Shown piece by piece: positions 25,777-27,522 of a stretch of 64,000 nucleotides of DNA; the stretch's first letter is position 1; each line of letters begins with the position of its first letter. The notes below the pieces were generated by a model. The model ran no database searches, was not told the DNA's origin, and saw nothing but the letters and a program-made list of their open reading frames with translations. The stretch is from Escherichia coli. Its GTDB lineage: Bacteria > Pseudomonadota > Gammaproteobacteria > Enterobacterales > Enterobacteriaceae. The stretch is taken from NCBI RefSeq assembly GCF_009931435.1, contig NZ_CP043414.1. The stretch is one strand, 5' to 3'. Position numbers and translations under genes: made by a program.

Positions 25777-27522
25777 ATGAAAATGACTTTGCCGTTTAAA
25801 CCCCATGTGCTGGCGCTAATTTGCAGTGCCGGGCTTTGTGCCGCCTCTGCCGGGCTATATATAAAAAGCCGCACAGTGGAAGCGCCTGTGGAAGCGCAAT
25901 CGACACAACTGGCTGCGCCTGACATCACCGCAGTTACGCTTCCTGCAACGGTTTCCGCACCGCCCGTAACGCCCGCCGTCGTTAAAACCGCATTCAGCAC
26001 TGCGCAAATAGATCAATGGGTTGCACCTGTCGCGCTGTACCCCGACTCTCTGCTTTCACAAGTGTTAATGGCATCAACCTATCCGACAAACGTTGCGCAA
26101 GCAGTGCAATGGTCGCACGATAATCCACTTAAACAAGGCGATGCTGCTATTCAGGCGGTATCTGACCAGCCGTGGGACGCCAGCGTCAAATCGCTGGTGG
26201 CTTTTCCGCAATTGATGGCGTTAATGGGCGAAAACCCGCAGTGGGTGCAAAATCTTGGCGACGCATTTCTGGCGCAACCACAGGACGTAATGGACTCGGT
26301 ACAGCGGTTGCGGCAACTGGCGCAACAAACCGGCTCGCTGAAGTCATCAACCGAACAGAAAGTTATTACCACAACGAAGAAAGCTATACCGGTAAAACAG
26401 ACAGTCACGGCTCCCGTCATACCATCCAATACCGTTACAACTGCCAACCCTGTCATTACAGAGCCTGCAACAACCGTCATTTCCATTGAGCCCGCCAATC
26501 CTGATGTGGTCTATATTCCCAACTACAACCCAACCGTGGTTTACGGGAACTGGGCCAATACTGCGTATCCGCCGGTTTATCTGCCACCACCAGCCGGAGA
26601 ACCGTTTGTTGACAGCTTTGTGCGCGGATTCGGCTATAGCATGGGCGTTGCTACCACGTACGCACTATTCAGCAGCATCGACTGGGACGATGACCATCAT
26701 CATGACGATGATGATTATCACCACCACGATGGCGGTCATCGTGACGGTAATGGCTGGCAACACAACGGCGACAACATCAATATCGACGTCAACAATTTCA
26801 ACCGTATCACCGGTGAGCATCTTACTGATAAGAACATGGCATGGCGGCACAATCCAAACTACCGTAATGGTGTGCCCTATCATGATCAGGATATGGCAAA
26901 GCGGTTTCACCAAACCGATGTCAACGGCGGCATGAGCGCCACGCAGTTACCTGCTCCAACACGCGACAGCCAGCGTCAGGCGGCAGCAAGTCAGTTTCAG
27001 CAACGAACACACGCCACACCCGTCATTACGCGAGATACACAACGTCAGGCGGCGGCACAGCGATTTAATGAAGCGGAACACTATGGGAGCTATGACGACT
27101 TCCGCGAGTTCAGCTGTCGCCAACCACTGACCCAGCAACAAAAGGACGCCGCTCGTCAGCGTTATCAGTCGGCCTCTCCTGAGCAGCGCCAGGCAGTCCG
27201 CGAGAGAATGCAGACTAACCCGCAGAACCAGCAGAGAAGAGAAGCGGCACGTGAGCGTATTCAGTCAGCCTCGCCTGAGCAGCGCCAGGCGGTTCGCGAG
27301 AAAATGCAGACTAACCCGCAGAACCAGCAGCGAAGAGAGGCAGCGCGTGAGCGTATACAATCAGCATCACCTGAACAACGTCAGGTTTTTCGGGAGAAAG
27401 TTCAGGAGAGCCGCCCACAACGTCTAAACGACAGTAACCGTACTGCCCGATTGAATAACGAGCAACGGTCAGCAGTACGCGAACGTCTCTCTGAGCACGG
27501 AGCAAGGCGACTGGAAAGGTAA
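25777..27522 (+). CDS. yacH: Secreted repetitive protein (DUF3300-like), unknown function
   Basis: 581-aa ORF; signal peptide MKMTLPFKPHVLALICSAGLCAASA; His/Asp cluster; C-terminal 32-aa tandem repeats. True start uncertain (K-12 annotation is longer as I recall). Confidence 0.75.
   Translation: MKMTLPFKPHVLALICSAGLCAASAGLYIKSRTVEAPVEAQSTQLAAPDITAVTLPATVSAPPVTPAVVKTAFSTAQIDQWVAPVALYPDSLLSQVLMASTYPTNVAQAVQWSHDNPLKQGDAAIQAVSDQPWDASVKSLVAFPQLMALMGENPQWVQNLGDAFLAQPQDVMDSVQRLRQLAQQTGSLKSSTEQKVITTTKKAIPVKQTVTAPVIPSNTVTTANPVITEPATTVISIEPANPDVVYIPNYNPTVVYGNWANTAYPPVYLPPPAGEPFVDSFVRGFGYSMGVATTYALFSSIDWDDDHHHDDDDYHHHDGGHRDGNGWQHNGDNINIDVNNFNRITGEHLTDKNMAWRHNPNYRNGVPYHDQDMAKRFHQTDVNGGMSATQLPAPTRDSQRQAAASQFQQRTHATPVITRDTQRQAAAQRFNEAEHYGSYDDFREFSCRQPLTQQQKDAARQRYQSASPEQRQAVRERMQTNPQNQQRREAARERIQSASPEQRQAVREKMQTNPQNQQRREAARERIQSASPEQRQVFREKVQESRPQRLNDSNRTARLNNEQRSAVRERLSEHGARRLER
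27166..27410 (+). repeat. In-frame 96-bp tandem repeat (about 2.6 copies) in yacH 3' region
   Basis: Repeated peptide R(Y/I)QSASPEQRQAVRE(R/K)MQTNPQNQQRREAARE; DNA period 96 bp (copy starts at about 27166 and 27262). Confidence 0.85.

Follow-up and report, generated by a model that had tools for sequence, protein, structure and literature searches.

A 96-bp in-frame tandem repeat of variable copy number in the basic C-terminal tail of the Escherichia coli DUF3300 protein YacH

In-frame minisatellites are a well-known and ordinary kind of repeat. Among the closest described systems are the variable-number tandem repeats (VNTRs) used in multiple-locus VNTR analysis (MLVA), including ms11, an E. 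coli/Shigella locus with a 96-bp unit and published primers (PMC8215070). Here we examined a tandem array of 96-bp units in the gene yacH, within a 64,000-nucleotide stretch of E. coli DNA (contig NZ_CP043414.1; hereafter the window). Like the MLVA loci, the yacH array has a unit of tens of bases, whole-unit differences between strains, conserved flanks and stability within clones. It differs from them in its narrow range (2–5 units) and in having units that are only ~50–90% identical. Identity with ms11 was considered and rejected, since neither published primer (PMC8215070) matches the window at ≤3 mismatches. The yacH array was described in none of the papers searched, and both the array and the family-wide basic tail to which it belongs appear to be undescribed in them.

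The gene itself has surfaced in only a few studies. It is reported to be under CpxR control, to have less mRNA in the presence of protamine and, when deleted, to leave cells better able to survive protamine (PMC9600279). Its expression is lower in a rob mutant (PMC7537768), and its deletion gives a slightly higher yield of recombinant protein (PMC7376861). The joint explanation that we lean towards for the present observations is that yacH carries a coding minisatellite whose units are lost and gained by misalignment, and that the tail containing them is an exported, flexible, polycationic arm.

A sequence-only reading of the window had named the gene yacH, and this assignment holds. The Pfam profile PF11737 (DUF3300) scores 262.4 bits on the product (cut-off 25; E = 4.3e-78), covering profile positions 2–227 of 227, while none of the NCBIfam models matches it. 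The neighbouring open reading frames (ORFs) in the window are acnB and lpdA, one on each side and both on the minus strand. The order acnB-yacH-lpdA is also annotated in K-12 and other genomes, as expected of orthologues. DNA matches to yacH were found in 5,425/5,426 E. coli genomes, and in 5,410 of these the match covers at least 80% of its length. The gene, its domain and the repeat units are located in the window as follows.

25777..27522, plus strand: yacH coding sequence, DUF3300 protein, 581 amino acids (aa) plus stop (ORF list, Pfam)
25999..26763, plus strand: DUF3300 domain, aa 75–329
27124..27159, plus strand: lead-in half-unit PLTQQQKDAARQ, a predicted helix ahead of the array (repeat register; helix aa 453–465)
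27160..27255, plus strand: repeat unit 1 (type a) RYQSASPEQRQAVRERMQTNPQNQQRREAARE, 96/96 nt identical to unit 1 of the RMDEC465 allele
27256..27351, plus strand: repeat unit 2 (type a') RIQSASPEQRQAVREKMQTNPQNQQRREAARE, 95/96 nt identical to unit 2 of the RMDEC465 allele
27352..27447, plus strand: repeat unit 3 (type C, terminal and diverging) RIQSASPEQRQVFREKVQESRPQRLNDSNRTA, 94/96 nt identical to unit 4 of the RMDEC465 allele
27448..27495, plus strand: degenerate terminal half-unit RLNNEQRSAVRERLSE, with the EQRxAVRER(M/L) pattern of the units (helix aa 561–571)

Tandem Repeats Finder placed the array at 27154–27385 with a period of 96, 2.4 copies, 86% matches, no indels and a score of 331. 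A separate repeat search found three copies at spacings of 96 and 96 nt, in a register that begins at 27124. Units 1 and 2 are alike at 85/96 nt, and unit 3 is homologous to them over its first ~57 nt only. The QSASPEQRQ motif starts at 27166, 27262 and 27358, the first of these being the Q at which the sequence-only reading had begun the repeat. In the self-comparison at a lag of 96, the best 96-nt window matched at 87/96 positions. When codons were shuffled 300 times, in the whole gene and in the Gln/Arg-rich C-terminal third alone, matches averaged 44 and never exceeded 49–50, which excludes chance as the origin of the array. As 96 = 3 x 32, all units are translated in the yacH frame inside one ORF, in the C-terminal part of the protein. 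Both programs and the reading of the frame therefore agree on the 32-aa peptide, the 96-bp period and the two full copies plus one diverging copy that had been claimed. The array has head-to-tail copies, a period that is a multiple of three and a strain-variable copy number, the properties of an in-frame coding tandem repeat.

The window protein is shorter than that of K-12, in which yacH is 1854 bp and encodes 617 aa. Two causes had been put forward, repeat number and start choice. Repeat number stood and start choice fell, because all aligned alleles share the start MKMTLPFKPH, and the window ORF opens at the first start codon after the upstream stop, so that no extension is possible. The deficit of 36 aa consists of one 32-aa unit plus 4 aa of the His/Asp tract (DHDH, 12 bp; alignment columns 307–310). 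K-12 reads a, a', B, C and the window reads a, a', C. Two alleles of 584/585 aa read a, B, C, and an allele of 553 aa carries two. The 581-aa protein, in identical form, is known from 177 contigs named E. coli, one of them 5.2 Mb long, so it represents a real allele and no assembly artefact. Proteins identical to it carry the labels E. coli and 'Escherichia sp.'. Among complete RefSeq E. coli genomes none is >95.7% identical to the window yacH and none >99.1% for acnB, and the window lineage seems poorly represented among complete genomes.

To size the array across E. coli, only its two flanks were used as the query, so that the anchor-to-anchor span in each genome reports array length. A systematic sample was taken at even steps through the 5,425 matching complete genomes, giving 60 genomes.

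Four units: 35/60 genomes, span 996 bp (one at 1707 bp with a downstream IS200 insertion, its count being inferred)
Three units: 22/60 genomes, span 900 bp in 17, 888 bp in 1 and 1071 bp in 4
Two units: 2/60 genomes, span 804 bp in one; the other, at 975 bp, is inferred to be 804 + 171
Very divergent allele: 1/60 genomes, span not applicable

The four genomes with a 1071-bp span have three units plus 171 bp inserted between yacH and lpdA. An allele with five units (aaaBC, 648 aa) is also on record. Alleles with 2, 3, 4 and 5 units thus exist in E. coli, in line with the length polymorphism that had been predicted from the window alone and against an identical length in all strains. Unit typing of the 120 protein clusters closest to the window YacH gave aaBC as the most frequent string, aaC in 11 clusters (581 aa), aBC in another 11 (584 aa in ten, 620 aa in one) and aaaBC in a single cluster (648 aa). 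Further in-frame changes in the region are duplications of 45, 18 and 4 aa, giving proteins of 662, 634 and 621 aa, and a deletion of 11 aa (606 aa). A probe for the B-to-C junction covers 4,891/5,426 genomes, so unit B is missing from ~10%. This count equals that of genomes without the spacer insertion, which suggests that most genomes lacking B belong to the insertion lineage. The probe for the a'-to-C junction of the window also aligns to other unit junctions at 80–90% identity.

Several individual genomes stand out at this locus. About 10% of complete E. coli genomes carry the 171-bp insertion in the yacH-lpdA spacer, and its sequence reads like a repetitive extragenic palindromic (REP) or bacterial interspersed mosaic element (BIME). 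E. coli CUVET21-H2 (locus 2024–2264), the single insertion-bearing locus inspected, also lacks unit B. Genome H120 has a copy of IS200C in the same spacer. In E. coli E69 (locus 2501–5083) the yacH match spans 2,583 bp instead of ~1,750 and the frame breaks after ~365 aa; the gene appears to be disrupted by an insertion of ~800 bp.

Copy number looked uniform within the sampled clonal groups (K-12, BL21 and O157:H7 strains). All sampled K-12 and BL21 laboratory derivatives have four units, so the array has been stable across decades of laboratory passage. We considered and rejected a contingency locus, phase-variable and hypermutable, since a 96-bp unit cannot shift the frame and the K-12/BL21 derivatives are constant at four.

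The closely related allele of RMDEC465 has four units, of which units 1, 2 and 4 match window units 1, 2 and 3; its unit 3 (B, 96 bp) is missing from the window. Aligned in this way, the window allele (a, a', C) is shown to correspond to a four-unit allele minus exactly unit B. The end points of the deletion can be read at the unit boundary, where units 2/3 end in AG and units 3/4 begin with CGTAT, the shared stretch being AGCGTAT. The haplotype family of the window holds 616-aa (aaBC), 584-aa (aBC) and 581-aa (aaC) forms. In CUVET21-H2, which belongs to another lineage, the B-less junction is different, with a last unit that has an a/B-type 5' end and a second unit with a short B-like patch. 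At least three different unit orders or junctions among three-unit alleles point to repeated loss. As read from these alleles, at least three losses and at least one gain (aaaBC) of whole units have taken place. Gain and loss would occur by misalignment of similar units during replication or recombination. The units concerned are roughly 70–90% identical, and adjacent ones share exact runs of 13–30 nt, which is enough for slipped-strand or unequal-exchange events. With a unit of 3 x 32 nt, the reading frame is kept at each event.

The yacH of E. coli AST85 (locus 1204–3063) is highly divergent: megablast aligns its two ends and nothing between them. Its Pro/Thr-rich linker is longer, and the 32-aa units are replaced by two units of 34 aa that are almost the same. 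Their near identity implies a separate duplication, or homogenisation within this allele, which may have been acquired from another Escherichia lineage.

Three or four 32-aa units were found in E. albertii, E. whittamii and two further Escherichia lineages, and a single unit in Salmonella arizonae, the one Salmonella examined. In Citrobacter, Kluyvera, Raoultella and Atlantibacter an 18-aa unit, LQNPTAQQQQRRExAKSH, occurs 2–3 times ahead of a single TPEQHQQRQQ segment. From this comparison the 32-aa period appears to be genus-specific and to predate E. coli. An enterobacterial-type yacH that is 50% identical to the query and has the Citrobacter-type 18-aa repeat occurs on a contig titled Chryseobacterium sp. 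18061, probably through mislabelling or contamination of the record.

All 20 units compared, drawn from six Escherichia lineages (E. albertii among them), keep the core Q-(S/P)-(A/T)-(S/T)-P-E-Q-R-Q. Between window units 1 and 2, 11/96 nt differ, changing 8 codons synonymously and 2 non-synonymously (p = 4e-4 where 25% synonymous changes are expected). Purifying selection is thus clear for the window pair, whereas units a and a' of K-12 give 2 synonymous and 5 non-synonymous codons, and the overall picture is mixed. The first half of the unit shows clear constraint and the second half mixed constraint.

Further features of YacH outside the array bear on export and on the character of the tail.

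25807..25863, plus strand: N-terminal hydrophobic segment VLALICSAGLCAASAGLYI, export signal or signal-anchor (aa 11–29; hydropathy)
26680..26739, plus strand: His/Asp-rich acidic tract DWDDDHHHDDDDYHHHDGGH (Tandem Repeats Finder, alignment, direct reading)
26959..27057, plus strand: older degenerate repeat TRDSQRQAAA / TRDTQRQAAA, spacing 69 nt (23 aa), 77% identity

Residues 11–29 form the sole 19-residue window with a Kyte-Doolittle mean >1.7 (2.04), AlphaFold predicts a helix at aa 9–24, and distant DUF3300 homologues have classical cleavable signal peptides. A signal peptide on YacH is therefore plausible, and YacH would be exported by this N-terminal signal. A second transmembrane segment at aa 283–301, which would place the Arg-rich tail in the cytoplasm, was rejected, the hydropathy there being <1.0 as against 2.04 at the N-terminus. 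With no second hydrophobic segment, the tail and the DUF3300 domain are on one side of the membrane. The order of parts in the protein would then be the DUF3300 domain, the acidic His/Asp tract and a basic, Gln/Arg-rich tail of ~190 aa with about eleven short helices. The acidic tract has a period of 21 at 26689–26731 (Tandem Repeats Finder), and aa 301–335 hold 11 D and 8 H, a composition that suggests metal binding. It is a second indel hot spot of the gene, with 3-bp differences in other alleles. Loss of 8 bp from this tract is reported to frameshift yacH in several strains of Salmonella Typhimurium (PMC3391293, PMC10048834). The tail (aa 396–581) has 38 Arg/Lys, 24 Asp/Glu and 33 Gln, a net charge of +14.

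An AlphaFold2 model of full YacH, built on 108 sequences, has a mean predicted local distance difference test score (pLDDT) of 73.9 and a predicted template modelling score (pTM) of 0.61, with the helical DUF3300 domain at pLDDT >93. Helices are predicted in the older degenerate repeat (aa 396–410 and 419–433) and through the repeat region at aa 453–465, 468–479, 482–497, 500–512, 514–528, 532–556 and 561–571 (pLDDT 76–84). Each unit is predicted to form two short helices, SPEQRQAVRE(R/K)MQ and PQNQQRREAARERIQ, split by Ser/Asn-Pro turns. A model of the tail alone gives the same helices at pLDDT 78–91. The suggestion that the repeat is helical fits both models, with two helices per unit at pLDDT 76–91.

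The DUF3300 family is large: 9,613 representative clusters were found at E ≤0.001. Tails were compared in 68 of the 150 best representatives, namely those that combine the motif WxH(N/D)PxxRxxxxY with a tail no shorter than 40 aa. Like YacH, these proteins have an export signal, the DUF3300 domain, the WxH(N/D)PxxRxxxxY motif and a net-positive, low-complexity tail. The tail is net positive in 68/68, with a median charge of +15.5 and 17% Arg+Lys against 7% Asp+Glu. Tandem repeats are present in 27/68 tails, with lineage-specific periods of 9–36 aa. They are Gly/Arg-, Pro/Arg- or Ala/Lys-rich and bear no relation in sequence or period to those of YacH. Outside Escherichia and Shigella the Gln/Arg-rich 32-aa unit was not found, and a protein search with the YacH tail alone returned only E. 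coli and Shigella YacH fragments. Going by this survey, the E. coli repeat is one case of a family-wide pattern in which basic tails are made from locally arisen repeats.

Escherichia YacH lacks the AFSGNDSRSPSW..QRG.QSR motif that most other DUF3300 members keep near the C-terminus; at 27409–27447 of the window, in comparison with homologues, RLNDSN runs straight into RTARLNNEQR. Of three distant DUF3300 loci, two have a DUF2950 (PF11453) gene immediately downstream in the same orientation (2578–3576; 6547–7461), a hint that the two genes form a conserved pair. At the E. coli loci examined yacH has no such partner, and the features that follow it are a hairpin and the convergent lpdA.

The least certain step of the favoured explanation is how the tail acts. 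It would act through composition and length, touching anionic envelope material, with no single fixed fold. This reading draws on composition, the predicted structure and the comparison across the family, and the earlier suggestion that the repeat binds polymers or envelope components is speculative. Action by composition and length would account for the tolerated gain or loss of helix pairs and for the unrelated repeats of other DUF3300 lineages. Several points weigh against the explanation. Slippage or recombination is read indirectly from the alleles, and the copy-number frequencies come from a systematic sample of 60 genomes. Cleavage and periplasmic location are deduced from hydropathy and homologues. 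The selection signal is mixed, given the 2 synonymous and 5 non-synonymous codons between K-12 units a and a'. The tail-only model has a pTM of 0.33, so local helices are predicted and their packing is not. The protamine phenotype comes from one study and does not implicate the tail (PMC9600279).

Other explanations have to be set beside the exported, misalignment-prone arm. That the short ORF is an artefact, either a mis-called start codon or an assembly-collapsed repeat, is vanishingly unlikely. Short-read assemblies can collapse repeats, and start choice had been raised by the earlier reader, but the array is only 288 bp long, its units differ at 11 or more positions, and eleven related 581-aa clusters accompany the protein that is identical on 177 contigs; the common MKMTLPFKPH and an ORF opened at the first start after a stop refute start choice. 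A more serious proposal, which we still regard as rather unlikely, is that the repeat is selectively neutral filler, a tolerant low-complexity tail where the products of slippage drift and no unit has a function in itself. Such drift would fit the persistence in E. coli of alleles with 2–5 units and of in-frame indels of 4, 11, 18 and 45 aa, the excess of replacements between K-12 a and a' (5 against 2), DUF3300 tails that are wholly different in sequence and period, and the yacH pseudogene of several Salmonella Typhimurium strains (PMC3391293, PMC10048834). It is harder to reconcile with the QSASPEQRQ core kept in 20/20 units of the six Escherichia lineages, with the 8 synonymous against 2 non-synonymous codons of the window units, and with a gene found in 5,425/5,426 E. 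coli genomes, at ≥80% length in 5,410. The net positive charge of 68/68 tails points to selection at least on composition.

The units might instead be helices of the LTXXQ type known from CpxP, Spy and ZraP (PF07813), which are periplasmic, as YacH would be, and like YacH are Cpx-linked in the literature; YacH would then serve in the periplasm, under Cpx control, as a chaperone or adaptor whose client-binding hairpins vary in number. The helix starts of these proteins share with the YacH units the pattern S/T-x-x-Q-(R/K)-x-x-hydrophobic-R-(D/E)-x-M, PLTQQQKD stands ahead of the array, the units are predicted to be helical, and CpxR regulation has been reported (PMC9600279). In hhalign comparisons, the program pairs SASPEQRQAVREKMQT with CpxP SLTEHQRQQMRDLMQQ (7/16 identical) and RLNNEQRSAVRERLS with Spy NLTDAQKQQIREIMK, at probabilities of 1.4% and 0.7%, respectively. 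We consider this explanation highly improbable. The YacH tail gave no Pfam match to LTXXQ PF07813 at E up to 10 and no sequence match in the PDB, and showed no significant sequence or profile similarity to CpxP/Spy/ZraP; nor did a link to any solved structure reach significance. Where CpxP and Spy form a single helical cradle, YacH has many tandem copies on a DUF3300 protein. The best Pfam match to the tail is DUF3106 (PF11304), like DUF3300 a family without known function, in which tail-fragment aa 4–62 align with profile positions 27–89. The score of the fragment alone (15.5 bits, E = 0.025) is below the gathering cut-off of 24.3, so the YacH tail is no member. A bolder extension of the polycationic-arm explanation, that the tail is the working part of DUF3300 proteins, a protamine-like periplasmic arm on anionic lipopolysaccharide, lipid or peptidoglycan sites, is in our view improbable. 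If it were true, the number of helix pairs would tune envelope charge and susceptibility to cationic antimicrobial peptides, which would link the reported Cpx regulation and the protamine resistance seen on deletion of yacH to the allelic variation that exists naturally among E. coli lineages.

The sequences flanking the gene contain one further feature.

27534..27564, no strand assigned: hairpin between the convergent yacH and lpdA, consisting of A8, GCGGC, loop gtggtta, GCCGC and T6 (direct reading)

The hairpin is likely to be a two-way intrinsic terminator. It was not listed by a consensus terminator scan, possibly as the A/T runs lengthen the stem. Two minus-strand terminator-like sites inside the repeat (2.6 expected) and the antisense ORFs of 64 aa were taken as noise. 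An Rfam search of both strands of 25000–28000 gave only a chance microRNA match (E = 0.19). A search for the CpxR box GTAAA-N5-GTAAA (≤2 mismatches) found none upstream of yacH, and 52 in the whole window against 45.7 expected, no more than chance would give. On the other side of yacH, the mechanical acnB ORF (22825–25575, minus strand, 916 aa) extends upstream of the annotated start. In related genomes acnB starts 354 bp before yacH, which places the real start near 25422 and leaves a divergent intergenic region of 354 bp.

Current understanding of E. coli biology is unchanged by these results. They do explain the recorded E. coli YacH lengths of 553–662 aa as whole-unit gain and loss plus small indels and not as annotation error, which matters for pan-genome clustering and for allele comparison. 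The array could serve as a simple marker that can be sized by PCR. The natural allele series, from 2 to 5 predicted helix pairs in a protein that is conserved elsewhere, provides an experimental handle on yacH, and the net-positive, often repeat-built tails of the DUF3300 proteins examined offer a testable clue to the role of the family.

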